The notes below the pieces were generated by a model, which saw nothing but the letters and a program-made list of their open reading frames with translations, searched no databases and had not been told where the DNA came from. From Methanomassiliicoccales archaeon (lineage in GTDB: Archaea; Thermoplasmatota; Thermoplasmata; Methanomassiliicoccales; JAAEEP01): a stretch of 64,000 nucleotides of DNA. Both the position numbers and the translations under genes were made by a program. Of this stretch, positions 1 to 36,369 are shown piece after piece. Each line of letters starts with the position of its first letter. The first letter of the stretch is position 1. The stretch covers positions 21,318 to 85,317 of the forward strand of contig JAAEEP010000006.1 of the NCBI GenBank assembly GCA_013415695.1. The letters run 5' to 3'.

Positions 1-626
1 CCATAACCGTACTCCGTCGAGGTGGACGGATTCCAGACATCGAAACCTGTGGCTACAACCACCGCCCCGACATCGAACTCCAGCATGACATCGTTCATCT
101 CGTAGTCGATCGCTTCCCTCTTGCAGACCTTCTTGCAGACCCCGCACTTTCCTTCCTTGAGGTACCTGCAGTTCTCAGGGTCTATGATCGCCGCTCTGGG
201 AACAGCCTGCATGAAGGGCATATAGATGGCCCTCCTTGTCGACAAACCTTGCTCCCACTCATTGGGTATATTCTTCGTGGGGCACTTTTCCAAGCATTCT
301 CCACACCCCGTACATTTGTATTCATCAACGTATCTAGCCTTCTTCAGTACCCTGACATTGAATTTGCCCTTCTCACCTTCGAGGCCGACCAATTCAGAAC
401 AGGTCATCACGTTAATGTTGGGGTGTCCATAGCAATCAGCCATCTTCGGGGCGAGTATACAGATCGAGCAGTCATTGGTGGGGAAGGTCTTGTCCAGCTG
501 TGCCATTCGGCCACCTATGCTGGGCTCCTTTTCCACCAGGTGCACGATGACTCCCTTGTCCGCTAGGTCCAAGGAGGCCTGTATGCCCGCGATGCCGCCG
601 CCAATTACCAGCACCGTTTTTTCCAT
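1..626 (-). CDS. hdrA: HdrA-like FAD/Fe-S flavoprotein, 5' part only (gene continues beyond window start)
   Basis: Manual minus-strand translation from ATG 626-624 (GGAGG upstream) stays open to position 1. It reads MEKTVLVIGGGIAGIQASLDLADKG..MAQLDKTFPTNDCSICILAPK..CTGCGECLEKCP..CRYLKEGKCGVCKKVC. It is absent from the ORF track because there is no stop in the window. Paralogous to the N-halves of the two large hdrA genes. Confidence 0.9.
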   Translation of the reverse strand, partial: MEKTVLVIGGGIAGIQASLDLADKGVIVHLVEKEPSIGGRMAQLDKTFPTNDCSICILAPKMADCYGHPNINVMTCSELVGLEGEKGKFNVRVLKKARYVDEYKCTGCGECLEKCPTKNIPNEWEQGLSTRRAIYMPFMQAVPRAAIIDPENCRYLKEGKCGVCKKVCKREAIDYEMNDVMLEFDVGAVVVATGFDVWNPSTSTEYGY

Positions 627-693
627 TTTTCTTTCCTCCGTCCAGTAAAACCACAGTATTTTCTTTTGGAAAGTGGATTCTTTTCCACGTCAT

Positions 694-747
694 GGGTACC
701 TGGTGCCTGACCGCTTCAACGATCATTTGCACGCACTTAAGGTACCC
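694..747. repeat. 8-bp inverted repeat GGGTACCT/AGGTACCC (694-701 / 740-747) in the spacer between the Cys-repeat gene and hdrA
   Basis: Read directly from the sequence. The arms are perfect with a 38-nt spacer. It lies in the 137-nt gap inside an otherwise overlapping gene string. Confidence 0.5.
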
Positions 748-763
748 ATCCTGAAAATGGCTC

Positions 764-1135
764 CTACTCCCCTCCCTCGAAGATCCCTGAAAGATCTCCA
801 GATTTTTTCAATTCCACAGTCTTAACCTTGAATTTCTTCTTGTCCAGGACTTCCCTCTTGTATCTTTGACAATTGGGATAGGTGCATGGATCGCACTGCT
901 TCTCTGAACAAGCCAGTTCAACAAACATGTACCATTGTCGGTACCCATCCTTGCTTACAGGTGGACCCTCTACCTCAAACGCTTTGGTGGTCACTTTGGG
1001 CTTCTCTGTCAAACGAACGTAACGCTGACAGTCTGGATAAGTGCATGGGTTGCACTTGAAGTCCTTGCAGGAGAGTTCCACCATTAGATATCTCTTGTCC
1101 GGATTATCCATTTCTTCGGTCGCCGTCTCAATCAC
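764..1135 (-). CDS. Unrecognised small soluble protein with a tandem-duplicated C-x4-C-x2-C-x4-C-QRY motif (8 Cys)
   Basis: 123-aa ORF; start is GTG 1135 (1 nt after the hdrC/B fusion stop) or ATG 1111. The two repeats are LMVELSCKDFKCNPCTYPDCQRY and MFVELACSEKQCDPCTYPNCQRY. Same strand and tight spacing with the hdr genes. Confidence 0.6.
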   Translation of the reverse strand: MIETATEEMDNPDKRYLMVELSCKDFKCNPCTYPDCQRYVRLTEKPKVTTKAFEVEGPPVSKDGYRQWYMFVELACSEKQCDPCTYPNCQRYKREVLDKKKFKVKTVELKKSGDLSGIFEGGE

Positions 1136-2698: not shown

Positions 2699-5600
2699 TA
2701 TCTCACCCCCTCTAGGCAGGACTCGACCATTGCAAGTATCTGCTCGTTGGTGAAATGTTTGCTGATGATAGCCCCGTTGCAGCATGTCACTGCACATGTA
2801 CCGCATCCTTTGCAGAGCGCGGGGTTGATGCTGGCCTTGAAAACTCCTGGCTCAACTTCCTGCACTGTGATGGCGGAGAACTCACAGACTGCCTCGCATC
2901 TAGCGCAGCCCCGACATTTCACCTCCTCCACATAGCTTATTGTGGCCTCACCCTCCACGGTGTCCTTGGATATCACCATTATTGATCTTGATGCGGCTCC
3001 CGCCGCCTGGGCGATGCTCTCGTCCGCGAGCTTAGGCCAATGGGCAAGGCCTGCAAGGAACACCCCCTCGGTGGCGAAGTCCACCGGCCTGAGCTTCATG
3101 TGAGCCTCCAGGAAAAAGCCATCCTTGCTAAGGGGAACTTTGAGCATCTTCGCCAATTCCTCGTTGTCGGGATTGGGCTTAATGCCTGTGGAGAGTACCA
3201 CCATATCCGGTTGTACCGACACCTTGTCCCCAAGAATCACATCCTGGGCGGAAATATCGATGATGCCTCCATCCACCGTCATGTCTGGCATGGTGTCGTC
3301 CGGCATCCTTATGAACTTCACGCCAAGCTCGCCTGCCTCCCTGTAGAGATCTTCCTTGAAGCCGTAGGTCCGGATGTCTTTGTAGAACATGTATACCTCG
3401 GCCTCAGGGTTGGCCTTCTTGATGCTGATCGCATTGTTCATGGCAGTCGAGCAGCAGATGCGGCTGCACATCGGATTATCCTTAGTGCGGGAGCCAACAC
3501 ACTGGATCATGACCACATTCTTGGCCTCGAGAGGTTTCTCGGCCATCATCTCTGCCAACTCCAGCTGTGTGACCACGCGGTCATCCTCACCGTAGAAGTA
3601 CTCGGTGGGCTGGTATTCCTGTGCTCCCGTGGTCAGTATTATCGTGCCTGCCTCAATCTCTTCCTCCGGAAGTGATATCCTAAAGTTGCCCACGAAACCC
3701 GAGATGTTCTCAATCTCAGCGTTCAGATGTACGGTAATCTTCTCGTTTCTAGAGATCTTAGCAATGAGCTCATCGGATACCTGCTTGCCGGTCTTTCCAT
3801 CCTTGTAAATGTGGACCCGCTTCAGATTGCCTCCAAGGCCATCCGATCTTTCGATGATGTCCACATCGAAGCCTTGGGCGGCGATCTCGAGGGCGGTAAT
3901 CATCCCAGAGAGGCCACCTCCAATGATGGCGGCTGAGTGATAGACTTCAAGTTTAGTCCTCTCCAAAGGTGAGATGAGCCTTGCCTTCGCCACCGCCATT
4001 CTCACAAGGTCCTTGGCTTTCTCCGTGGCTTTCTTTGGCTCGTGAGAGTGCACCCATGAGCATTGGTCGCGTATGTTGGCCATCTCGAAGAGATACGGGT
4101 TCAGGCCGGCTTCCCTGATGGTACTCTGGAATAGAGTCTCGTGAGTCCTCGGTGTGCATGATGCCACGATCACCCTGTTGAGGTTGTTCACATTGATCAT
4201 CCTCTTGATGATCTCCTGAGTATCCTGGGAGCAGGTGTACAGGTTCGCCTCGGCGTGAACGACATTTGGCAGGGTCTTTGCATACTCCACCACCTCCGGG
4301 ACGTTGATCACCCCGCCGATGTTGATGCCGCAGTGGCATACGAACACCCCTATTCTGGGCTCTTGAGTCCTTATGTCGACCTCATGAGGATACTCCTTTG
4401 GTTTGGCAAGTGTATTCCTCCTATCCGAAATGATTGCCGATGCCTTAACCGCTGCTCCCGAAGCCTCGGCCACCGTGGTCGGGATGTCCATGGGAGCAGC
4501 GAATGACCCGCTTACGAATATGCCCTCCTTGGATGTACTCAGCGGATCCCAAGCACCGGTTTCACAGAAGCCGTACTTGTTCAGCTCAATGCCGAAGACC
4601 TCCTGCAATTTCCCGGCGCTGTTCGAAGGGCAGAGACCTACCGAAAGGACTGCCATTTCGAACTCTTCCTCGTAAACATCGCCCCCTTCGCTGTACCTGA
4701 CGATAATGTTCTTGGTCTCAGGGTCTTCCTCGAGAGAGGCCACCCTAACTCCCCGGTGAATAATAACGCCACGTTCAAGCTCAGCGCGCTTGCGGTAGTC
4801 CTCGAACTCCTTTCCGACCGCTCTCACATCCATGAAGAAGATGTGCGGTTCCAGTCCCTTGGCGTGTTCCCCAGCGATGATGGCCTGCTTGAGCGCGTAC
4901 ATGCAGCAGACTGATGAGCAGTAGGTGTTTCCTACCTTCTCATCCCTGGACCCAACGCATTGCAAGAACGCTATCTTGGAGGGTATGTCACCATCTGAAG
5001 GTCTAAGCACATGCCCGAGATATGGGCCAGTGGCGCTGAGAATCCTTTCAAATTCTATGCTGCTCACCACATTCAGGTATTCTCCATAGCCATACTCCTT
5101 CTTCACCGAAGGCTCAAATTCCTCCGAACCAGGCGAAAGAATGATAGAACCCACCTCGACCGCTACGGACCTGTCCGCCAGCTCGAAATCGATGGCTCCG
5201 GTATTGCATGAGAGCTTGCAGGCACCGCACCCTATGCAGAGTTCGGGATCAATGCTGTATACCAGGGGAACCGCTTGAAGGTAAAGCACAGATATCGCTT
5301 TCCTCCTCATGAGCCCCTCGTTGAACTCATCTACGTACTCGACGGGACAGTTCTCTGCACAGGTTCCGCAGCCTATGCATTTCTCTGGGTTGACCTTGGG
5401 TACCCTCTGTTTGAGCGTCACCTTGAAATTTCCGGGCTCACCCTCGCATTTTTCAAGATCCGCATTGTTTATTATTGTGATGTTGTGATGCCTTCCCGCC
5501 TGCACGAGTTTTGGGGCGAGTATGCACATCGCGCAATCGTTGGTGGGGAAGGTCTTGTCCAGCTGGGCCATCACGCCCCCGATGCTTGGCTTCTTCTCCA

Positions 5601-25914: not shown

Positions 25915-26010
25915 ATCATCAATAAATACTATATAAAATATTACTATATAGTAATTTCTTTTCATTCTTCAAAAAACTGCAAATAGTTGGGTTTCGTTCT
26001 GGAAACCATC

Positions 26011-26976
26011 ATGCTCCAGTCAATCTCTTCCAAGCTCGAAAAGGGCAGGAAGCTCATACTCATCCACGGAAATGCAGACCCCGATGCACTGGGATGTGCC
26101 TATGCTATCGCAAAGGCTTTCCCAGAAGGAGATATCGTGGCACCTGGTGGCCTGGACAGAATATCAAAGATCATCACTGACAAGCTAGGGATTGAAGTAG
26201 GTGAGAATGCAGATTTCTCTGATTATGATCTGGTTGTAGTCGTTGACACCTCATCCCCCGACCAGCTTGAGAATCTCAGCGATGTCCCTCTGGGTAGTGT
26301 AATAATAGATCATCATGCCCGTACCGAAAAGTGGAATGGTTGCGTCTATTACTGCGATGAATCGAAACGGAGCTGTGCAGAGATCGTTCTCGAGCTGGTC
26401 CGAATCGATGGAAAGGAACTGGATAGGGATGTTGGCCTAGTCTTACTCGCTGGAATGATCACCGATAGCGGTCACTTCAGGTACGCGAACCAAGAACTGT
26501 TGACCACCTTCGCCGAGTTATTGAGGGAAAACGAACTGGAGATCGACGAGGTATTCGCACTTACCGATATGGAGCAGGTCATATCAGAGAGGATAGCCCA
26601 GCTGAAGGGCGGTCAGAGACTCAAATTTGATAGGATAGGGCGATACATAGTGGCGATCTCCCATGGTTCATCCTTCGAAAGCTCCGTCTCAAAATCGCTG
26701 TTGTCACTTGGCGCAGACGTGGCGTTCGTAGGTTCCCAGCGCGAAGATCGGTTCAGAGTAAGCGCAAGGGCCAGGCAGGAGATGGTAAGGATGGGATTGC
26801 ACCTTGGAAGAATGTTGGAGGATATCGGTTTCGAGACCTCCAACGATGGTGGAGGACATCCCGGAGCTGCTGGTCTTATCGGGGAAGGTGATGTTGAAGC
26901 AATGCTCAACATGTGCATGAGGCGCACGATGGACTTCTTTAGAAAGATCAGAGATTCAGAACCTATCAGGAATTGA
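26011..26976 (+). CDS. DHH/DHHA1 phosphoesterase (NrnA-like)
   Basis: HGNADPDALG, VVVDTSSP, IIDHH and GGGHPGAAG. Confidence 0.8.
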   Translation: MLQSISSKLEKGRKLILIHGNADPDALGCAYAIAKAFPEGDIVAPGGLDRISKIITDKLGIEVGENADFSDYDLVVVVDTSSPDQLENLSDVPLGSVIIDHHARTEKWNGCVYYCDESKRSCAEIVLELVRIDGKELDRDVGLVLLAGMITDSGHFRYANQELLTTFAELLRENELEIDEVFALTDMEQVISERIAQLKGGQRLKFDRIGRYIVAISHGSSFESSVSKSLLSLGADVAFVGSQREDRFRVSARARQEMVRMGLHLGRMLEDIGFETSNDGGGHPGAAGLIGEGDVEAMLNMCMRRTMDFFRKIRDSEPIRN

Positions 26977-27006
26977 GAAAGATAAAAGAAATGGGATCGA
27001 GGAAGA

Positions 27007-28059
27007 TCACTTGTCTAGGATCTCCCTGATCTTTTCCAGGTTCTCCGGGTGTTTTTCGAAGAACTCCCGCACGGGAGCGAGCATCTCCACAAGGGCGGAG
27101 GAGGTCCCGTTCTTGAGGTCCATTGGATGCAGTTGTCCTGCTACGTATGATTCCTCGAGTGCCGAATAGCTCTCAAAGACCAAGGGACCGCCGAACTTCT
27201 CCGGACGATCGATCTTCAGGAAGTCCATTCTTTGGAATATTATGAAACGGCAAATATCCAGTATTGGATTTCCCTCTGCCTCTGGAGGGCAGAATGCCTT
27301 CTTTATCTTCCTCCTGATGTCCTCGGGAGAGTCGTGAATCATGATCCCACTGTCGGGGTCGCTCTTGGACATCTTGGCTGCAAGAGGATCCATTCGATCA
27401 CCTCCCTTGAGCCCCGATAACAAGGGCGTATGCAACGCTACTGGCTTCTTCCAGCCGAGTTTATCAGCGGCTTCCCTGGCCAGCATGTGCGCCCTTCTCT
27501 GATCCATGCCTGCGTAGGCCACATCAACATCCAGGGCAAAAATGTCAGCCGCCTGCATCAGGGGATACATGACCTTGGAGGTGTCCACCTCGGCCTCATC
27601 ACCCTCTCTTCCCATGATGGTCATGGCTCTCTTCACCCTGGATAGGGTTGAGTTCTTCCCGATGCTGATGACCTTAGACCAATAATCGATGTTATCCATT
27701 AGTTCAAAGGCATAGACGAAATTGACCTTGTCCCTGGGCACACCGAGTGCCTCGAAACAGTCCTCCATATACCTGGCACATATCCTGATGGTGCCGATGT
27801 TTCCACCGAGCTTGTCGTTGATATAGGCGTGCCAGTCTGCGAAGAACACCGTGAAGTCGAATCCTGCGTCGACGAAGTCTCTCACCTTGTTGGATATGAT
27901 AACCCAGCCAAGGTGCACCAGGCCCGAAGGCTCGAAACCGACGTAGCCCTTCGGTCGGTCGTTTGTCTCCAAGAGCTTCCTCAGCTCTTCCGGGGTAACG
28001 ACCTCCTCGGCATTCCTGGTCAGTAGGTCAAATCGTTCCTCTGAGTCCATGGAAATCAA
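27007..28059 (-). CDS. tyrS: Tyrosine--tRNA ligase (archaeal type)
   Basis: GFEPSGLVHLG, YPLMQAADI, KMSKS, PEDIRRKIKKAFCP; collinear with archaeal TyrRS. Confidence 0.9.
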   Translation of the reverse strand: MISMDSEERFDLLTRNAEEVVTPEELRKLLETNDRPKGYVGFEPSGLVHLGWVIISNKVRDFVDAGFDFTVFFADWHAYINDKLGGNIGTIRICARYMEDCFEALGVPRDKVNFVYAFELMDNIDYWSKVISIGKNSTLSRVKRAMTIMGREGDEAEVDTSKVMYPLMQAADIFALDVDVAYAGMDQRRAHMLAREAADKLGWKKPVALHTPLLSGLKGGDRMDPLAAKMSKSDPDSGIMIHDSPEDIRRKIKKAFCPPEAEGNPILDICRFIIFQRMDFLKIDRPEKFGGPLVFESYSALEESYVAGQLHPMDLKNGTSSALVEMLAPVREFFEKHPENLEKIREILDK

Positions 28060-28139: not shown

Positions 28140-28294
28140 AGTTATGATGATTCTAATATGAATCACTTAATCATTATTATACATATGTATAGTAATTTTG
28201 ATTCATATTATACATATATCTATTCTAATAATACATTATATACAATTATAGTGTTTAACAACCTTTAAGTAGATATTTGTTTATAAACTAATTC
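28140..28294. promoter_or_regulatory. Strongly AT-rich divergent promoter region (tyrS / amt operon) with repeated TTATACATAT
   Basis: TTATACATAT occurs twice, alongside related ATACATTATATAC. Sequence inspection only. Confidence 0.4.
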
Positions 28295-28559
28295 ATGTCT
28301 CCAATAAATGTCTATCAAAATGGAATTGTTGATTCACAGTATTCCATTTTTATGGGCTTCGAGTGTACAAATATAGGAGAATATTCGGTGTCATTAGTCA
28401 AATATTATTCTCCAAGAAGGCAGAAATCGATTGAGATTGGGGCAAGTACCAACTCCCCTGATTCATCTCCGGAATGCTTTCCCCTAGCACTCATCAGGAG
28501 GCACAGCGAGGGGTCAAGACCTCGTGACATAAACGGCTCATCGAGCTACAAACACCAAT

Positions 28560-28602
28560 GGGACGGTCGTCAAACACCACACCTTTCTGACGCGACCGTC
28601 CC
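28560..28602 (+). promoter_or_regulatory. Perfect 10-bp stem hairpin in the amt leader
   Basis: GGGACGGTCG (28560-69) pairs with CGACCGTCCC (28593-602) around a 23-nt loop. Further hairpins: CCTGAT/ATCAGG (28458-63/28491-96) and CGAGG/CCTCG (28507-11/28520-24). Confidence 0.4.
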
Positions 28603-28691
28603 TTCACCCAGTATGATCAACTGCGCCTACGGAGAGTTGGGTCTTCAGGTGCGCACACGCTCTAAGAAAGGTAAAGTGAGGTGAATAAGAA

Positions 28692-30101
28692 GTGAGGAAA
28701 ACGACGCTGGTTCTAGTGGCAATCCTATTGGTAGGAGTGTTCCTCTTCATTCCATCGACAGTCATGGCAGCCGATCCCTCGGGAGCGGAAACCATCGCCA
28801 CGGAGGGAGAAGGAATTGCTCTCGACTTCATCTGGATACTGCTATGTGCTTTCTTGGTCTTCAGCATGCACGCCGGGTTCGCAATGTTGGAATCCGGATT
28901 CTCCAGATCGAAGAACGTGACCAATGTGCTTATGAAGAACATCATGGCCTTTTCTGTAGGCACTATCTCGTTCTTCGTCGTTGGATATGTCTTTCTAATG
29001 GGCACTGATTTCGCTGGCTTTTTCGGCACGGACGGATTCATGCTGCTAGGGGACTTCTACGATGTCAACACGTTGCTGCTGTGGTTCTTCATGCTTGTCT
29101 TCGCCGCTACCTCCGCCACAATCGTGAGTGGGGCTATCGCGGAGAGGACTAAATTCAGCACATTCATCATAGTAACTGTTGCGATTACCGCTGTCATCTA
29201 TCCCATATACGGACATTGGATCTGGGGCGGTGGGTGGCTCTCTTCGGCAAATTTCCTTGTAGATCTGGGTGGCGGCTATGGGGCTCTCGATTTTGCGGGA
29301 TCTGGTGTAGTCCACGCGGTGGGCGGTTTCATCGCCCTCGCGGGCTGTCTGATCATTGGTCCGAGGATAGGGAAGTACAGCTCTGACGGAAAACCAAATC
29401 CCATTCCAGGCCACAGCATGACCCTGGCAGTACTGGGTGCATTCATACTCTGGTTTGGATGGTTCGGATTCAACGCTGGGAGTACCCTCTCCGCATACGA
29501 GCTTAGGATATCAGTAATTGCAGTCAACACCAATATGGCGGCCGCAGCAGGCGCCATCACGGCAATGGGGATCACATGGCAGAAATTCGGCAAACCAGAT
29601 ATCGCCATGACCGTAAACGGTGCGATAGGTGGTCTTGTAGGAATAACCGCGGGTTGTGCTTGGGTAGCCCCCTGGGCTTCATTGGTCATTGGAGTGGCAG
29701 CCGGAGCAATCGTATGCTATGCATATTGGTATCTTGAGAGCAAAGGAGTGGATGATGTGGTGGGAGCCATCTCGGTGCACGCTTTCGGCGGAATCTGGGG
29801 GCTCATCGCCCTTGGCCTGTTCGCTGATGGCACCTATGGCAACTACACCACAGAGGGGCCTCTAGTTACCGGTCTTCTATACGGCAACCCCGGATTCTTC
29901 GTGGTCCAACTGATCAGCGTTTTGGTTGTCATATTGTGGGCGTTTGGACTCGGTCTGGCCTTATTCTATACGCTCAAGAAGACCACTGGTGTCAGGGTCG
30001 AGCCCGTGGAGGAAATTGAGGGTCTTGACCTTGCAGAGCACGGTTCTCTAGCATATCCAGAGTTCGTATCAATGGACCTTGTCGTCAAGAGGAGGCGGTA
30101 G
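28692..30101 (+). CDS. amt: Ammonium transporter Amt
   Basis: GTG start after GAGGTGA. Signal-like N-terminus, then FLVFSMHAGFAMLESG, AGSGVVH and the usual multi-TM layout. Confidence 0.9.
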   Translation: MRKTTLVLVAILLVGVFLFIPSTVMAADPSGAETIATEGEGIALDFIWILLCAFLVFSMHAGFAMLESGFSRSKNVTNVLMKNIMAFSVGTISFFVVGYVFLMGTDFAGFFGTDGFMLLGDFYDVNTLLLWFFMLVFAATSATIVSGAIAERTKFSTFIIVTVAITAVIYPIYGHWIWGGGWLSSANFLVDLGGGYGALDFAGSGVVHAVGGFIALAGCLIIGPRIGKYSSDGKPNPIPGHSMTLAVLGAFILWFGWFGFNAGSTLSAYELRISVIAVNTNMAAAAGAITAMGITWQKFGKPDIAMTVNGAIGGLVGITAGCAWVAPWASLVIGVAAGAIVCYAYWYLESKGVDDVVGAISVHAFGGIWGLIALGLFADGTYGNYTTEGPLVTGLLYGNPGFFVVQLISVLVVILWAFGLGLALFYTLKKTTGVRVEPVEEIEGLDLAEHGSLAYPEFVSMDLVVKRRR

Positions 30102-30103
30102 CG

Positions 30104-30442
30104 ATGAAGAAAATCGAGGCTATCATAAGGCATGAGAAGCTGGATGAGGTGAAGAGCTCCCTCGATGAGGCAGGCATAGTGGGCATGACAATCTCCGAGG
30201 TCATGGGACGCGGCCGGCAGAAAGGTTTCGAACGCCAGTGGAGGGGCATGGTCTATGTAGCGGATCTTGTCCCCAAGATCAAGCTCGAGATCATTGTCGA
30301 CGACAAGGACGTCGAGTTGGCGATCGATACCATCCTGAAATCCGCATGGACTGGGGACACCGGAGACGGCAAGATCTTCGTGACCGACGTCGAGGAGGTC
30401 ATCAGAGTTCGCACCGGAGAGCGGGGAAGGGATGCGATATGA
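30104..30442 (+). CDS. glnK: PII nitrogen regulatory protein (GlnK/GlnB)
   Basis: MKKIEAIIRHEKLDEVKSSLDEAGIVGMTISEVMGRGRQKG..TGDTGDGKIFV. Confidence 0.9.
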   Translation: MKKIEAIIRHEKLDEVKSSLDEAGIVGMTISEVMGRGRQKGFERQWRGMVYVADLVPKIKLEIIVDDKDVELAIDTILKSAWTGDTGDGKIFVTDVEEVIRVRTGERGRDAI

Positions 30443-31395
30443 GCTTCCCTGTTGAGGTGCGTAAGAATCAGGAATACCACACGGGGGACGAGAAACCCCG
30501 TTACTTCCTGGAGGTCGATCTGAATATGGTCGCTCCGGGAAGGAAGGCTTCCCTCCCCATCTATTGGAGATCCAACAGTTCTCACCCGGTGCTCAAGGAG
30601 ATATATCACACCGAGATCGGTGGCTTCGCGATCGAGAGGGGGAACCTTCCCTCTCTCCTTGATTCGGTCAAGAACGCCATGGGCGGAATGATGGAGAACG
30701 GGACTTTGCCCTACTATTCGATCGTGCTTCCCAATGGCAACCGGCTATCGATATTTCTGGTTAAGGACAAGCTTCAGGCGAGAATCGGTCGAACGAAGAT
30801 CGAGGGGAAGGACATTGCAGACGTCTACAAGCAGCTGAGAGAGGCTCTGAAGGGGATAGGGATGATCACGAATGGTTCCCAGCTTAAGGTGAATATCTTC
30901 CTCTGGCACGATTTGAGATTGTACCCGCCCGCCTTCATTCTCAGAGATATTAGAGAAAGGGTTTGGACCCCCATCTTCTGCTCCCTGAAGGAGGGGGAGG
31001 CGATGCTGAACTACGATGAGGTCAACCGGCCTTCGGAGATGATCGAGATTAAAAATGTTCTCAATTTGCGCGACCAGATGGCATACAGGATCGCGTCCTA
31101 CGGGACCGTAAGGTCAGCCAATCAGATATTCATGGATCAGACCCACGATGCGGTCTGGAAGACCATCAGAGAACAGGTCGATAGAACCGATGAAGTTCTC
31201 AGCTACGAGAAGAGTGATTTGAGATTTGAGATACCAATCTACACGGCGAGGACCGGGCTGATTGCAGCTGACAGGCCCAAGGTGTTCTTCGGCAAGGATC
31301 CGTCTAGCCTGGCTTCGGTAGTGGCCGAGGTCCTCAAGGCGAACGGCACCATTGCCAGCTCCGTTTCGCTGAGATTGGATACCAAGAGGAGGTAG
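30439..31395 (+). CDS. Unrecognised soluble protein (318 aa), translationally coupled to glnK
   Basis: ATG 30439 overlaps the glnK stop (ATGA). No TM segment and no motif I recognise. The track extension from 30238 lies inside glnK and is rejected. Confidence 0.6.
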   Translation: MSFPVEVRKNQEYHTGDEKPRYFLEVDLNMVAPGRKASLPIYWRSNSSHPVLKEIYHTEIGGFAIERGNLPSLLDSVKNAMGGMMENGTLPYYSIVLPNGNRLSIFLVKDKLQARIGRTKIEGKDIADVYKQLREALKGIGMITNGSQLKVNIFLWHDLRLYPPAFILRDIRERVWTPIFCSLKEGEAMLNYDEVNRPSEMIEIKNVLNLRDQMAYRIASYGTVRSANQIFMDQTHDAVWKTIREQVDRTDEVLSYEKSDLRFEIPIYTARTGLIAADRPKVFFGKDPSSLASVVAEVLKANGTIASSVSLRLDTKRR

Positions 31396-31399
31396 TTGA

Positions 31400-32812
31400 A
31401 TGTATGAAATAATCGGAGCAGTGATAGGTGGAGCAGTACTCCTATTCCTGATCTGGGCAGTGAGATACACCAAATGCGGGCCCAACGAGGTGCTTATCAT
31501 CTCGGGTCGGAAGCGCAAGGATGCGACGAGCAAGAAGAGCGCCGGTTTCCGGATAATCAGAGGGGGCGGTACATTTGTCTGGCCTTTCAAAGAAACTGTC
31601 AAGCGGATGTCGCTGGAGATCATGAACCTTGATGTGCGCACCAGCGATGTGTACACTAAGCCAGGTGTTCCCATATCCGTGGAGGCGGCCTCGCAAGTGA
31701 AGGTGAAGGGTGATGACGAGTCCATCATCCTGGCGGCGGAGAACTTCCTCTCCAGGCCTAAGGACGACGTTATGAAGACCGCCCTTCAGGTACTTGAGGG
31801 CCACACCCGCGCGGCAATATCTATGATGACCCCGGAGGAGGCCTACCAGATGAGGCGTGAGCTCGCCAACAGATCCAAGGAGGAGGCCTCCGCTGACCTC
31901 AACAGGATGGGGCTGGAGATCGTCTCCCTGACCATAAGGAACGTTTACGACAACCAGGGCTACCTGGAGGCCGTTGGCAGGCCCCGGACAGCCCAGGTTA
32001 AGAGGGATGCGCTTATCGGTGAGGCTCTTGCTGACGAGGAGGCCAAGAAGGTCCAGTACGATGCCGAGACCAAGATAGAGGAGTCCCGTAGGAACTACGA
32101 GATACAAAAGGCCGGTTACGACGCTTCCGTTGCTGAGAGGAAGGCGGAGTCCGATCTCGCCTACGATCTGCAGAGGTTCAAGACCGAGCAGAAGGTGAAG
32201 GAAGAGGAGATCAAGGTCGGCATTGTCGAGAAACAGATGGCGACCGAGCTCGCCGAGAAGGAAATCGCCAGGAAAGAGAAGGAACTCTACGCTGAGGTGG
32301 TGAAACCTGCGGAGGCCGAGAAGCTCAAGATCGAGAGGTTGGCTGAAGCTGAGAAGTTCAAGCTGACGACCGAGGCCGATGGAGAGTCCATGGCCATCAA
32401 GCGCAGGGGATTCGCTGAGGCTGATGTGATCAAGCAGAAAGGTGTCGCGGAGGCGGAGACCATGACGCTAAAAGCTGAGGCCTGGAGCAACTATAACGAG
32501 GCGGCCGTCACCGAGATGTTCGTGGACGTCCTTCCCAAGATGGCTGAGGCAGTCGCACAGCCTCTGGCTCAGACAGATAAGATCACCATCATTTCGCAGG
32601 ACGGTCAGTCTACTGGGGCGGATCGCATAGTGGGCGACATAACCGGCGTGATAGCAAAGCTCCCCACAATCGTCGAATCCCTTACAGGAACCAAGCTAAG
32701 CGATCTGATCAAGAAGATCCCTGGCCTGGGGGAGGCTTTCGAGGACGATGATATGGAGACAAGTGAAACCCACACGGAGAGTGAGAGCGGATGGTCAGAA
32801 AAAGCCTTCTGA
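31400..32812 (+). CDS. Flotillin-like SPFH/band-7 protein
   Basis: N-terminal TM segment, an SPFH core (NLDVRTSDVYTKPGVPISVEA), and a long EA-rich coiled coil (AEAEKLKIERLAEAEKFKL). Confidence 0.85.
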   Translation: MYEIIGAVIGGAVLLFLIWAVRYTKCGPNEVLIISGRKRKDATSKKSAGFRIIRGGGTFVWPFKETVKRMSLEIMNLDVRTSDVYTKPGVPISVEAASQVKVKGDDESIILAAENFLSRPKDDVMKTALQVLEGHTRAAISMMTPEEAYQMRRELANRSKEEASADLNRMGLEIVSLTIRNVYDNQGYLEAVGRPRTAQVKRDALIGEALADEEAKKVQYDAETKIEESRRNYEIQKAGYDASVAERKAESDLAYDLQRFKTEQKVKEEEIKVGIVEKQMATELAEKEIARKEKELYAEVVKPAEAEKLKIERLAEAEKFKLTTEADGESMAIKRRGFAEADVIKQKGVAEAETMTLKAEAWSNYNEAAVTEMFVDVLPKMAEAVAQPLAQTDKITIISQDGQSTGADRIVGDITGVIAKLPTIVESLTGTKLSDLIKKIPGLGEAFEDDDMETSETHTESESGWSEKAF

Positions 32813-34284
32813 GATCAAAGAAGGAGGCAAAGTCAAAAGACCCGAAGGACCTCAAGAAGGAAGCGAAGCGGAGGGATAAGGATGATCCCTTCACCCGCTT
32901 CATATCCGGAGAGATCAAGATGGTGGACTTCAAGTTCACCGACCTCCCTGGAGGCCTGCAGCACATCACCATCCCTGCCGAGCGGTTCAACCCAGAAGTG
33001 CTTGCTGAGGGGATAGGTTTCGATGGTTCCAGCATCAGGGGGTTTGCGGAGATACAGGAGAGCGACATGCAGCTCGTCCCCGATCGAACGACGGCTTTCG
33101 TCGATCCCGTCTGTAAGCTCCCAACCCTTTCATTTCTATGCAACGTGTTCGATCCCGTCACAAAGGAAAGGTTCTGGAACGACCCGAGGTACATCGCCCA
33201 GAAAGCTGAGGAATATTTGGTATCCTCGGGAATCGCAGACACTGTGAATATGGGGCCAGAGGCAGAGTTCTTCATCTTCGACTCGGTAAGGTTCGACCAG
33301 AACGAGCACAGCAGCTATTACTTCGTGGATTCGGATGAGGGTATATGGAACTCTGGTTCTGACGACGGCCCTAACCTGGCCCACAGACCTAGGTACAAGG
33401 GTGGATACTTCCCCGTCCCACCCACCGACTCACTCAATGATATCAGGTCCGAGGCGATGCTGAAGATGGCTGAGGTTGGGATCGAGACAGAGGTGCACCA
33501 CCACGAGGTCGCAACTGCGGGACAGGGAGAGATCGGCATCAAGTACTCGACCCTAACCAAAGCCGCTGACAACATAATACTCTACAAGTACATCGTGAAG
33601 AACACTGCACTGGAATTCGGGAAAACGGTGACATTCATGCCAAAGCCCCTTTTCGGGGACAACGGGACCGGGATGCACGTCCACATATCACTGGCCAAGG
33701 AAGGTGACAACCTCTTCTACGGATCAGAGGGATATGCGCAGCTTAGCATCAGTGCCATGCACTTCATGGGCGGTTTGCTTGAGCATGCGGCCTCAGTACT
33801 TGCGTTCACCAATCCGACCACGAACTCATATCGCAGACTCGTTCCAGGGTTCGAAGCCCCTGTCAACCTCGTGTACTCGCAGAGGAATAGGAGCGCAGCG
33901 ATTAGAATTCCAGTCGTTTCTTCTCCCAAGGCCAAGAGGATGGAGTTCCGTCCCCCTGACCCATCCAGCAATCCATACCTAGCGTTTGCGGCCATTCTAA
34001 TGGCTGGACTCGATGGCGTGAAGCGCAGGATAGATCCGGGTGACCCCATGGATGTCGATATATTCGAGCTCCCGAGGGACAAGATCGCCAACATCAGAAC
34101 GGTGCCTGGATCACTTGAGAAAGTGCTTGAGGCGCTTGAGTCAGATCACGAATACCTGCTCAAAGGAGGGGTATTCACCAAGGGGCTGATAGAAACATGG
34201 ATAGAATATAAGAGGAAGAGAGAGAACGACCCTATGAGGCTTCGGCCACATCCTTACGAGTTCTACCTCTACTTCGATGTGTGA
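32791..34284 (+). CDS. glnA: Glutamine synthetase type I
   Basis: FDGSSIRGF, NMGPEAEFF, HHHEVATAGQGEI, KPLFGDNGTGMHVH and NSYRRLVPGFEAP. The start is ambiguous. ATG 32791 gives a Lys-rich extension and overlaps flotillin by 22 nt. ATG 32920 would truncate the usual N-terminal helix. Confidence 0.9.
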   Translation: MVRKSLLRSKKEAKSKDPKDLKKEAKRRDKDDPFTRFISGEIKMVDFKFTDLPGGLQHITIPAERFNPEVLAEGIGFDGSSIRGFAEIQESDMQLVPDRTTAFVDPVCKLPTLSFLCNVFDPVTKERFWNDPRYIAQKAEEYLVSSGIADTVNMGPEAEFFIFDSVRFDQNEHSSYYFVDSDEGIWNSGSDDGPNLAHRPRYKGGYFPVPPTDSLNDIRSEAMLKMAEVGIETEVHHHEVATAGQGEIGIKYSTLTKAADNIILYKYIVKNTALEFGKTVTFMPKPLFGDNGTGMHVHISLAKEGDNLFYGSEGYAQLSISAMHFMGGLLEHAASVLAFTNPTTNSYRRLVPGFEAPVNLVYSQRNRSAAIRIPVVSSPKAKRMEFRPPDPSSNPYLAFAAILMAGLDGVKRRIDPGDPMDVDIFELPRDKIANIRTVPGSLEKVLEALESDHEYLLKGGVFTKGLIETWIEYKRKRENDPMRLRPHPYEFYLYFDV

Positions 34285-34314
34285 TCGATGAAACTCCGTG
34301 AGCTTTGACACTTT

Positions 34315-34350
34315 GATGGCAAGGGTTGCCATCCTTTTTTCTATTTTCTT
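34315..34350 (+). terminator. Hairpin plus T-tract after glnA
   Basis: GATGGCAA-ggg-TTGCCATC followed by CTTTTTTCTATTTTCTT. Confidence 0.6.
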
Positions 34351-34443: not shown

Positions 34444-34725
34444 CTAGCCGCCCACGTTCATGTGCATGACGTTGACCACGTCACCATCCTCAAGCTCCGT
34501 ATCAAGGCCGTCCAGGAGGGTGATGTTCTTGCCATTCTTCAGGATGGTCACCACATCATTGAGGTTGCCCCGGGGATAGACGAACTTGCCGTAGCTTTCG
34601 TCGGTCTGCTTGAACACCTCCATCAGGAAATCCCTTATAGTAGAGCCTTCCATCTCGATGTCCAACTCCTTGACTCCAGCCATCTGGGCGAGATGTCCTA
34701 CTGTCTTGAACTTCACCCTTTTCAT
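34444..34725 (-). CDS. MoaD/ThiS-family ubiquitin-like beta-grasp protein ending in Gly-Gly (SAMP-like)
   Basis: 93 aa; ..ILKNGKNITLLDGLDTELEDGDVVNVMHMNVGG-stop; SD GGTGG. Confidence 0.75.
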   Translation of the reverse strand: MKRVKFKTVGHLAQMAGVKELDIEMEGSTIRDFLMEVFKQTDESYGKFVYPRGNLNDVVTILKNGKNITLLDGLDTELEDGDVVNVMHMNVGG

Positions 34726-34767
34726 CGAACCACCTTTGGGTCCATGGATTATTCAGATGTTGCCAAT

Positions 34768-36120
34768 CTACAGCCTGTTCATGGCCACTTCCGCAGCGGT
34801 GTGTGCTGGGTCTCTTACCATGCTGGTCGGCGGGCAGTAGGCGTTCTCGAACTGAATGACGAACTCCTCGATGGTCACTCCCTTCTCGAGGGCTGCTGTG
34901 ATCCAGTTGACACGCCCGTTCATCTGTGGATCCTTGCCAACCATCTGGGCTCCCAGTACTTTATGGCTTCCCTTCTCCACCAGGATTTTCACGGTCACGG
35001 GCTCGTGACCTGGATAATACCTAGCACAGGAAAGGCCAGTGTACTTGCCCTCCACCAAATCGATTCCGTAATAGGCGGCGAGTCCAAGAGAGATGCCTGT
35101 ACCGGCACACTGCAGGTCCCCGATCACACTTACCCAAGGGCTCGTGACCCCTGGATATATCATGCTCCCACCGGCTGCGTTCGTGCCTGCCACGATACCC
35201 TGTCTGACCGCGCTTGAGCCAAGTTGGCTCATTGTTGGTCCGGGGACTATGCAACTCTCTACCTGGATGACATCACCTGCTAGGTATATGTCAGGTACAA
35301 GCCGGCCTTTCTTGTATGGCTGCATGGTGGGGCTAACTCTTATCGCACCCAGCTCACCAACATCCAGTCCGATCTTGCTTGGAAGCTCCAGATTAGCGCG
35401 AACTCCCGTGGCCATGATGATCACCTCAGCGGGGTACTCCTTTTCCCCAGCGATCACGGATACTGCCTTGCCATTCTCCCCCTTGATGGAACCTATTGGA
35501 GTACCCATGACGAATTTGATGCCCTCTCCCTCGAGGTAATCCTGGACCATGTCTGCCATGTCCTTGTCGAATATCCTGGGGATGACCTGAGGGAACATCT
35601 CGATCACGGTAACATCGAGACCGACCTTCTTCAAAGCCAAAGCCATCTCGAGACCGATGACACCAGCACCTGCTATGACCGCTGACTTGGCTCCAACCAT
35701 AGAGGCTTGTATCTTCTTGCCATCGTTGATGGTCCTGACCGTGAAGACCCCATCAAGGTCCTTGCCCTCGATCGGCGGAACCCAGACATATCCACCTGTG
35801 GCTAGGATGAGGGAGTCATACTCCCACAACTTGCCGTCTGCGGTGGTGATCTTCTTATTGTCCGCGTCCACATCAGTGACTTTTGTCTTGGTGTACACGT
35901 TGATGTTCCTCTCCTCCTTATAGAACTCAGGATCGTGCATCACCATGTAATCCCAGTCTATGAGGCCCTCAAGGACCCATGGTATCACGCATGGAGAGTA
36001 AGCAATGTACTCGTCATCCGTGAAAACATTGATCTCGGCGTCCTTGTCCGTCCTTCGCGCAGCGGATGCGGCTGGCATTCCAGCGGCCCCGGTACCGATA
36101 ACGATTATCTTGCGAGCCAT
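34768..36120 (-). CDS. Pyridine nucleotide-disulfide oxidoreductase, CoA-disulfide reductase/NADH oxidase (NSR) family
   Basis: MARKIIVIGTGAAG, active-site YSPCVIPW and a second GAGVIGLE motif. ATG 36120 chosen over the track start. Confidence 0.8.
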   Translation of the reverse strand: MARKIIVIGTGAAGMPAASAARRTDKDAEINVFTDDEYIAYSPCVIPWVLEGLIDWDYMVMHDPEFYKEERNINVYTKTKVTDVDADNKKITTADGKLWEYDSLILATGGYVWVPPIEGKDLDGVFTVRTINDGKKIQASMVGAKSAVIAGAGVIGLEMALALKKVGLDVTVIEMFPQVIPRIFDKDMADMVQDYLEGEGIKFVMGTPIGSIKGENGKAVSVIAGEKEYPAEVIIMATGVRANLELPSKIGLDVGELGAIRVSPTMQPYKKGRLVPDIYLAGDVIQVESCIVPGPTMSQLGSSAVRQGIVAGTNAAGGSMIYPGVTSPWVSVIGDLQCAGTGISLGLAAYYGIDLVEGKYTGLSCARYYPGHEPVTVKILVEKGSHKVLGAQMVGKDPQMNGRVNWITAALEKGVTIEEFVIQFENAYCPPTSMVRDPAHTAAEVAMNRL

Positions 36121-36369
36121 AAGATCTACCTTTCCTTTGGAAGTATAGAATAGCATATTAATAAATTTGTGAGTTCGGGTCAAGGATACTCCGGTTATGC
36201 CCAAGGTTCATTGAAATTGGATTGAGAATGATATCGAGCCTTTCGATATCCGTAGGATGCACTGAAAATCAATTGATTGTCCTGTTCGAACCAGCATATC
36301 GCGTCACTGGCATCATGAGAAGATATATAGCCTTCCCGCGATGTTCTGAGCCAAGAACAAGAGGATTAG

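Follow-up and report, generated by a model that had tools for sequence, protein, structure and literature searches.

In a 64,000-nucleotide (nt) stretch of DNA from a Methanomassiliicoccales archaeon (contig JAAEEP010000006.1; hereafter the window, meaning the whole stretch analyzed), we identified a nitrogen gene cluster in which an ammonium transporter gene (amt), a PII signal protein gene (glnK), a gene without family assignment (the orphan), a flotillin gene, and a glutamine synthetase (GS) gene (glnA) follow one another. The cluster varies the known amt-glnK-glnA theme by including a protein family not described before, and the evidence for the operon and for its conservation is strong. 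Within this family of four-repeat proteins, the orphan represents the founding archaeal branch, and its genomic context suggests that it probably acts, without enzymatic activity, at Amt and PII on the membrane face.

The open reading frame (ORF) scan recovered the 5 genes in this order at 28692-34284, all on the plus strand as an earlier sequence-only reading had placed them, and the identities it gave hold in profile searches. The amt gene (28692..30101) has a GTG start and encodes 469 amino acids (aa) with an N-terminal signal-like segment, and glnK (30104..30442) encodes 112 aa. The orphan gene (30439..31395) encodes a soluble, four-repeat, Amt/PII-associated protein of 318 aa with a C-terminal KRR tail, followed by the flotillin gene (31400..32812), whose SPFH/Band 7 product of 470 aa has an N-terminal hydrophobic anchor and an acidic C-terminal tail. 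The last gene, glnA (32791..34284), encodes a type I GS of the GSI-beta kind with 497 aa and a Lys/Arg-rich N-terminal extension of ~24 aa. The junctions read earlier were also borne out, with a 2-nt gap between amt and glnK (TAG-CG-ATG), an ATGA overlap between glnK and the orphan, 4 nt between the orphan and flotillin (TAG-TTGA-ATG), and, depending on the start codon of glnA, either a 22-nt overlap with flotillin (ATG at 32791) or a 107-nt gap (Met44, at 32920).

Sequence comparison places the true glnA start at ATG 32791, the long form with the 22-nt overlap, because relatives have I or V at the position of the internal Met44 of the window, their sole in-frame starts lie ~22-25 nt inside the flotillin gene, and alignments to solved GS structures begin upstream of Met44, at residue 28-29 of the window GS. 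The Met44 start would thus remove a conserved N-terminal GS helix, and the short form was ruled out. The long GTG start of the orphan (30238) was ruled out as well; the orphan start was set by the homologs, every one of which begins at the Met of the ATGA overlap with M-x-F-P. With glnA starting at 32791, all 4 junctions are therefore at most 4 nt or overlapping. A Shine-Dalgarno-like site (GGAGG/GAGGTGA-like) precedes the start of each gene. The sole T5 run of the coding string is at 29019, within amt, and none was found in the sequence between glnK and glnA, where the sequence-only reading had named internal terminators as a sign against an operon. Because the junctions are tight, each gene has its own Shine-Dalgarno-like site, and no T-run separates glnK from glnA, we consider it very likely that the 5 genes form a single tightly coupled transcription unit; the conserved gene order described below also supports the five-gene operon.

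We searched 5.8 billion proteins for the orphan and found 13 homologs, 40-100% identical and all ~318 aa long. Contig look-ups and locus scans, mapped by tblastn, gave 10 lineages, all Thermoplasmata, with orphans <80% identical to one another, and a metagenome locus scan with a narrower alignment gave 3 loci. Across the 10 lineages, the orphan is 35-60% identical to that of the window and is the fastest-evolving member of the cluster. The order amt-glnK-orphan-flotillin-glnA was identified in the window, L001, L004, and L020, the last on a 266-kb contig with an orphan only 35-36% identical. Two PII genes are present in the L002 and L008/L014 groups (amt-PII-PII-orphan-flotillin-glnA), amt is missing from L006 and L013 (PII-orphan-flotillin-glnA), and flotillin is missing from L007 and L019 (PII-orphan-glnA). 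PII was directly upstream of the orphan, and glnA downstream closing the cluster, in 10 of 10 lineages, with flotillin in 8 of 10, amt in 7 of 9, and the amt-PII pairing likewise in 7 of 9. The 4-nt ATGA overlap of PII and orphan was kept in the 7 lineages with the closest orphans; elsewhere this junction has other short overlaps (L019 and L020) or a gap of ~340 nt (L007).

The Amt orthologs of the window, L001, and L004 have 469-470 aa. In several lineages, Amt is only 33-35% identical to that of the window, whereas flotillin is 58-69% and GS 69-72% identical (flotillin spans 58-74% across related clusters); amt has therefore been exchanged while the rest of the cluster persisted. Flanking genes differ between lineages. 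Since the arrangement recurs in 10 independent lineages, it is far beyond chance, and the synteny check proposed with the sequence-only reading came out in its favor, the order being kept in 10 Thermoplasmata lineages despite differing flanks and Amt paralogs.

Around the cluster, the window (25987-28059 and 34444-36204) shares housekeeping synteny with L001 (1-5796 and 11933-13613) and partly with L004. The upstream flank includes genes for SBDS, exosome Rrp4/Rrp41/Rrp42, L37ae, prefoldin, a DHH phosphoesterase, and TyrRS, and the downstream flank, on the other strand, a ThiS-like gene and a pyridine-nucleotide disulfide oxidoreductase gene. The cluster has unrelated surroundings in other lineages. 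In the flotillin-less L007 (4073-6310), an NAD synthase gene comes after glnA, together with a CTP synthase gene in convergent orientation; glutamine or ammonia is a substrate of both enzymes.

The orphan had no match in Pfam or NCBIfam (in Pfam, only noise at E≤10), and from the full set of PDB sequences its profile retrieved only MinE at E≤10, with an E-value of 0.72. An alignment of the 13 close homologs has no major gaps and 54 invariant positions. AlphaFold2, run on this alignment, gave a confident model with a mean predicted local distance difference test score (pLDDT) of 88.6 and a predicted template modeling score (pTM) of 0.83, in which groups of 4-6 strands alternate with single helices. 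Foldseek comparison of the model with 350,000 PDB chains yielded a best E-value of 0.065 and template modeling scores of at most 0.22. Comparison by hhalign of the family alignment cut into 4 segments (A-D) identified the orphan as 4 internal repeats of a small beta-hairpin/helix unit, with P-values of 8e-11 for B-D, 5e-10 for B-C, 6e-8 for C-D, and 9e-7 for A-B. No likeness in sequence or fold to the known PII-binding proteins PipX, DraG, NAGK, sP26, and TnrA was found in the PDB profile, Foldseek, and Pfam searches. Sliding clamps dominate the top Foldseek rows, but insignificantly and without meaningful superposition, and neither a PipX/Tudor-like nor a sliding-clamp-like orphan is supported. 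We also ruled out an analog of NfeD, as the orphan has no NfeD or OB-fold match and no transmembrane (TM) segment and is kept where flotillin is missing; no NfeD domain was found in the 5 operon proteins or the 13 orphan homologs.

Relatives of the orphan reach beyond the archaea. A wide-family hidden Markov model search, built from the archaeal alignment only and run against 1.84 billion representative proteins, gave 79 clusters at E<1e-3, of which 46 scored E<1e-10. The family is characterized by a length of ~320 aa, the 4 internal repeats, and the motifs PRYFxEVDL, PVYWRPNxxHPxLKEIYxxExxGxxxExGNL, LPYY, and DLRLYPPA..WxPxF. At least 5 members are Amt fusion proteins with the orphan domain at the Amt C-terminus, separated by a Pro/Ala-rich linker of ~40 aa; in P0073 (748 aa), Ammonium_transp spans residues 14-416 and the orphan domain residues 482-685, and independent samples added P0099, P0100, P0052, and P0106 (the last with 753 aa) as fusion proteins or fragments. 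Free-standing homologs lie 20 nt after amt in the Chloroflexi metagenome-assembled genome (MAG) L015 and 18 nt after the amt C-terminus in L016/L017. The hhalign probability was 98% for the Chloroflexi protein, at full length with an E-value of ~1e-14, and also 98% for a fusion. Linkage to Amt/PII thus includes 10 of 10 archaeal lineages beside PII and 3 bacterial contigs directly after amt.

Membrane-anchored forms make up 7 clusters (P0043, P0044, P0046, P0047, P0056, P0059, and P0066; consensus W.G..AF..L.LW.VLPSR..HR.R), in which a single N-terminal TM helix leads into a basic stretch and then a 50-80-aa linker, and by the positive-inside rule, their domain is cytoplasmic and at the membrane. 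The unknown soluble protein of the sequence-only reading, which has no family match and no TM segment in the window, belongs to a family that elsewhere is fused to Amt, adjacent to amt, or anchored in the membrane, and this strengthens that reading. Near-invariant positions across the wide family are structural residues only (N10, Y56, G62, L73, P91, L159, P178, L210, and L291), a pattern that fits a binding protein better than an enzyme.

Among other members, P0030 (465 aa) joins an orphan-family domain (7-321) to a C-terminal sensor domain of the Cache/PDC type (334-462), a hint that some of these proteins sense small molecules. In L022 (3519-5782), an Amt-orphan fusion is present as 2 ORFs, an Amt of 531 aa and an orphan fragment of 201 aa, reflecting either a real split or an assembly frameshift, with a cNMP/CBS/DUF294 nucleotidyltransferase gene upstream.

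In the window, Amt matches PF00909 (E 4e-123, 411 bits, cutoff 23.2) over residues 47-455, equal to model positions 1-399, and exceeds the cutoff of TIGR00836 (447.5 bits, cutoff 343.3). GlnK matches PF00543 (E 8e-32, 110 bits) and falls below the cutoffs of the GlnK/GlnB equivalog models, so that it is a PII of GlnK context and not an equivalog call. We looked for the T-loop residue R47 and the nucleotide/2-oxoglutarate residues R38, Q39, K58, G87-K90, R101, and R103, and all were present; aligned with E. coli GlnK, the window protein keeps R38, Q39, R47, Y51, K58, K90, and the C-terminal RVRTG. Since GlnK retains these key residues, canonical nucleotide/2-oxoglutarate sensing and Amt plugging, as established for PII proteins, are expected.

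Tandem PII genes were found in L002 (1924-2660), L014 (5918-6654), and L009 (378-1116). Of the 2 copies in these lineages, the one next to amt is canonical, with 120-132 aa and a C-terminal extension, and the orphan-coupled copy has 112 aa and carries R38E, G41E, and K90V/I/M. The latter has probably lost ATP/2-oxoglutarate binding, and the substitutions suggest sub-functionalization, in which the 2 PIIs would serve Amt and the orphan, respectively. Because the orphan-coupled PII looks specialized, it supports the orphan as a PII partner.

The flotillin matches PF01145 (Band_7; E 4e-25, 89 bits, cutoff 23.6) and PF15975 (Flot; E 3e-8, 34 bits, cutoff 27); with NF058507 (FloT), it reached 360 bits over residues 6-440, below the cutoff of 700, and is FloT-like and not an equivalog. 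The GS scored 635 bits with TIGR00653 (cutoff 429), 432 bits with PF00120, and 104 bits with PF03951. Its closest solved structures are those of Synechocystis, M. tuberculosis, and Salmonella (566-621 bits, full-length), whereas methanogen and Bacillus GSI-alpha structures gave partial matches of ~290 bits, and by these matches, we assign it to the bacterial-like GSI-beta and not to GSI-alpha. The GSI-alpha type is typical of archaea and Firmicutes. Against the Synechocystis structure 3ng0 (DVDIYDLS), the window GS reads DVDIFELP, with Phe in place of Tyr at a position that, by eye, may correspond to the Tyr adenylylated under GlnE control (E. coli Y397). A structural survey reported that Methanomassiliicoccales GS carries substitutions that would hinder 2-oxoglutarate and glutamine binding, and its authors raised regulatory partners as a possibility (PMC10799026); with these sites reported lacking, there is room for protein partners on the enzyme. 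The N-terminal extension of the window GS (32791-32919) has a net charge of +8 over 43 residues, and the flotillin tail just before it is acidic (EDDDMETSETHTESE). A flotillin-specific role of the basic extension was considered and dropped, as relatives have charges of 0 to +4 and short extensions are also present where flotillin is absent.

Alignment of the upstream regions identified a conserved 12-mer, TACATATGTCTA, on the operon strand. The window has 2 copies, TATACATATGTATA at 28178-28191 and TACATATATCTA at 28211-28222, which together (28178..28222, plus strand) are a candidate regulator binding site. Copies with at most 1 mismatch precede the first cluster gene by 180-480 nt in the window, L001 (position 5894), L004 (5796), L002/L003 (415 in L002), L008 (2016), L014 (4408), and L013 (5961). 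This covers all lineages with upstream DNA but L020, upstream of whose cluster it was not found, and L006, which has a two-mismatch version; elsewhere in those loci and in the window, the 12-mer hardly occurs. In L013, where glnK is the first gene, the module of 12-mer and promoter-like block sits ahead of glnK. The half-site of the 12-mer is ATGTCTA, and its copies flank a block resembling a transcription factor B recognition element (BRE) and TATA box.

This BRE/TATA-like block, CCTTTAAGTAGATATTT (28262-28278), and the half-site AATAAATGTCTATC (28303-28316; TGTCTAT) are conserved in the upstream alignment of the window, L001, and L004, with equivalent GAAAGGATTTTCTAGTC and TTTGTCTAT blocks in L002, L008, L014, L006, and L013. 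Region 28262..28316 (plus strand) is a putative promoter with an operator over the start-site region, and the 12-mer is a candidate operator of a nitrogen regulator. Each cluster would have one regulated promoter with a leader of 100-400 nt. In the window, the putative long 5' leader of amt (~400 nt; 28317..28691, plus strand) contains a stable hairpin at 28560-28602 (GGGACGGTCG-N23-CGACCGTCCC; -20.4 kcal/mol, z = -4.1, 0 of 200 shuffles as stable), of which L001 and L004 keep the CTTTC loop motif unchanged, whereas the stems lack clear conservation. A leader ORF of 129 aa (28295-28684) was ruled out as a gene, its protein not being conserved in L001 or L004. Rfam searches of the whole window, of the leader in sensitive mode, and of 6 related loci gave nothing relevant, and the NrpR operator known in methanogens (GGAA-N6-TTCC) is absent from the entire window. 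A scan for sigma-70-type promoters gave nothing above shuffle expectation, the model being bacterial and not meaningful for an archaeon.

Two side observations concern the upstream DNA of relatives. In L006, an AsnC/Lrp-type regulator gene (402-920, minus strand) is divergent from PII-orphan-flotillin-glnA and encodes a candidate binder of the upstream element. In L014 (~4243-4365), L002 (~245-370), and L008 (~1855-1975), the DNA ahead of the cluster promoter contains a conserved GC-rich element of ~130 nt (GCGCAAAGCGACC...GCTTTGCACC). A separate TTTGTCTATAC and the 12-mer in inverted orientation precede this element, which is absent from the window, has no Rfam match, and may encode a co-regulated small RNA.

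At the distal end of the operon, a terminator-like hairpin with an 8-bp stem and a 3-nt loop (34315-34333) is followed by CTTTTTT and a T-rich tract, CTTTTTTCTA (34315..34350 in all, plus strand). The sequence-only reading had described a strong hairpin and T-tract here; hairpin and T6 exist, but "strong" was overstated, since the stem folds at -10.2 kcal/mol with z = -1.2 against shuffles. The T6 run is the first downstream of the operon and is the relevant archaeal termination signal.

We favor an explanation that, as a whole, is on balance just probable. The genes amt-glnK-orphan-flotillin-glnA would be one nitrogen-regulated operon, transcribed from the conserved promoter/operator upstream of amt, with neighboring genes translated in a coupled manner. 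Proteins of the orphan family would be cytoplasmic, at the inner membrane face beside the Amt channel, and the Thermoplasmata orphan would be the partner of the PII encoded immediately upstream, linking the Amt/GlnK sensor to GS, with flotillin as a frequent but non-obligatory scaffold that keeps the assembly in a membrane patch. A place for the orphan at Amt/PII is the reading to which the Amt fusions, the adjacency to amt, the TM-anchored forms, the translational coupling to PII, and the specialized second PII all point. We infer from the sequences the contacts of the orphan with PII and Amt, the scaffold role of flotillin, and nitrogen control at the promoter. Since some lineages do without flotillin and others without amt, physical recruitment of GS into a flotillin-organized assembly is plausible but less likely than not.

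Several observations weigh against this explanation. L007 and L019 (2 of 10 lineages) do without flotillin, and L006 and L013 (2 of 9) without amt, so that neither is obligatory and the invariant core is PII-orphan-glnA, not the five-gene set. The neighborhoods of the bacterial homologs in L015 and L016/L017 contain amt but no PII, GS, or flotillin genes nearby, and the orphan-GS link may therefore be lineage-specific shared regulation and not contact; a distant homolog in L018 has no nitrogen genes nearby at all. The orphan fold is unmatched in the PDB and its structure gives no mechanistic hint, and all loci are MAG or metagenome contigs. The sequence-only reading had also proposed a membrane-organized ammonium module outside standard models. 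Full-text literature searches found no paper tying prokaryotic flotillin/SPFH proteins to GlnK, Amt, or GS, which leaves that part standing, but membrane organization of nitrogen regulators via Amt-GlnK is established, and the concept is only partly new.

Of the alternatives, one takes the orphan to be mainly a PII-dependent regulator of GS that replaces missing allosteric or adenylylation control, with flotillin and Amt only co-regulated neighbors. The persistence of the PII-orphan-glnA core both without amt and without flotillin speaks for it, as do the GSI-beta-like character of the GS and its Phe where the adenylylation Tyr was read by eye. Protein regulators of GS include IF7/IF17 in cyanobacteria. 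Others exist in archaea, namely sP26/GlnK in M. mazei, and the reported lack of 2-oxoglutarate and glutamine sites in Methanomassiliicoccales GS is also in line with this alternative (PMC10799026). However, distant relatives of the orphan are encoded right after amt or as part of an Amt fusion, without GS genes in the neighborhood, and TM-anchored forms exist. Both point to an ancestral partnership with the membrane and Amt and not with GS, and we regard an orphan that is mainly a GS regulator as unlikely.

A second alternative, to which we give a similarly low probability, is a co-regulated nitrogen-starvation unit without a joint complex, in which the orphan modulates Amt independently and flotillin has a generic role, for example in stabilizing newly inserted Amt trimers or membrane order. 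The shared upstream motif accounts for co-expression without contact, flotillin is lost in 2 of 10 lineages that keep the other genes, and flotillins are described as general stabilizers and organizers of membrane proteins (PMC11222466). Set against this, the glnK-orphan ATGA overlap and the flotillin-glnA overlap of ~22-25 nt are conserved, and such coupling is usual for stoichiometric partners; moreover, flotillin stays 58-74% identical within the cluster even where amt is swapped for a paralog of 33-35% identity.

A more elaborate reading would make the cluster an ammonium-capture station, in which a flotillin cage or patch on the cytoplasmic membrane face surrounds Amt trimers and the orphan docks on Amt/GlnK and keeps a GS dodecamer at the channel exit. 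Ammonia leaving Amt would then be fixed before diffusing back out, and GlnK would gate the whole unit. We consider this improbable; if true, it would be the first prokaryotic transporter-enzyme metabolon organized by an SPFH scaffold, and the orphan family would gain a defined adaptor role.

An enzymatic orphan, modifying PII or GS or acting on a nitrogen metabolite, is very improbable. The close subfamily has the invariant polar residues R21, D27, R35, N46, H49, K53, E54, E66, and N69, but most are not kept family-wide, where only Gly, Pro, Leu, Tyr, and Asn are near-invariant; there is also no likeness to any catalytic family or solved fold, and the fourfold beta-hairpin/helix repeat is more typical of binding proteins. 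Chance insertion of a functionally unrelated flotillin and orphan into an amt-glnK-glnA string, for which nothing speaks beyond the orphan being unannotated, can practically be discarded, as it is contradicted by synteny, with the order kept in 10 lineages down to 35% orphan identity amid unrelated flanks, and by independent Amt fusions.

The locus adds a conserved, structurally unmatched family to Amt-GlnK, one of the most conserved prokaryotic sensor pairs, whose partner list was thought largely known. Three independent architectures, gene adjacency, Amt fusion, and membrane anchor, put this family at the Amt channel. Prokaryotic flotillins lack defined client pathways, and a flotillin in a nitrogen operon offers a testable client set of Amt, PII, and GS. 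The operon also offers candidates for the control of Methanomassiliicoccales GS, reported without the usual effector sites. The scope is narrow, with one archaeal clade and scattered bacteria (~79 clusters in 1.8 billion representatives), and the general impact is limited.

We compared the cluster with known systems. In AmtB-GlnZ-DraG of Azospirillum and AmtB-GlnK-TnrA with GS of Bacillus subtilis, a soluble nitrogen-control protein becomes membrane-bound via Amt-PII. The same mechanism is proposed here for the orphan, although the orphan is unrelated to DraG and TnrA in sequence and predicted fold and those systems are without flotillin. As in the AmtB-GlnK pair of E. coli and Haloferax mediterranei (PMC3831643), amt and glnK are adjacent and co-oriented; unlike that pair, 3 further genes are translationally chained to glnK here, and some relatives of the window have 2 PIIs, the second with degenerate nucleotide-site residues. 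The fusions P0073, P0106, P0099, and P0100 resemble the Amt-histidine kinase Ks-Amt5 (PMC5764959) in carrying a cytoplasmic domain on the Amt C-terminus, but that domain is of the orphan family, with no kinase or known signaling domain, and the window encodes it as a gene of its own.

NfeD-flotillin/stomatin operons (PMC2636767; PMC4208085) likewise have a gene tightly coupled just upstream of the SPFH gene, and a survey of prokaryotic SPFH operons named NfeD partners and not nitrogen genes (PMC2636767); unlike NfeD, the orphan lacks an NfeD domain, TM segments, and an OB-fold match and persists without flotillin in L007 and L019. In Arabidopsis, AMT1;3 partly co-localizes with Flot1 nanodomains and is internalized at high ammonium (Wang et al. 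2013, in PMC8644385). This is likewise a link between a flotillin and an ammonium transporter that responds to ammonium and GS status, but the plant mechanism shuts off uptake by endocytosis in a eukaryote, involves neither an operon nor PII nor an orphan, and serves as an analogy only. Archaeal PII contacts GS in GlnK1-sP26-GS of Methanosarcina mazei and GlnK-GS of Haloferax (PMC10799026). Although sP26 has 23 residues against the 318 aa of the orphan, and the GS there is GSI-alpha against the GSI-beta-like enzyme here, the PII-X-glnA gene order of our cluster suggests an analogous three-partner arrangement.

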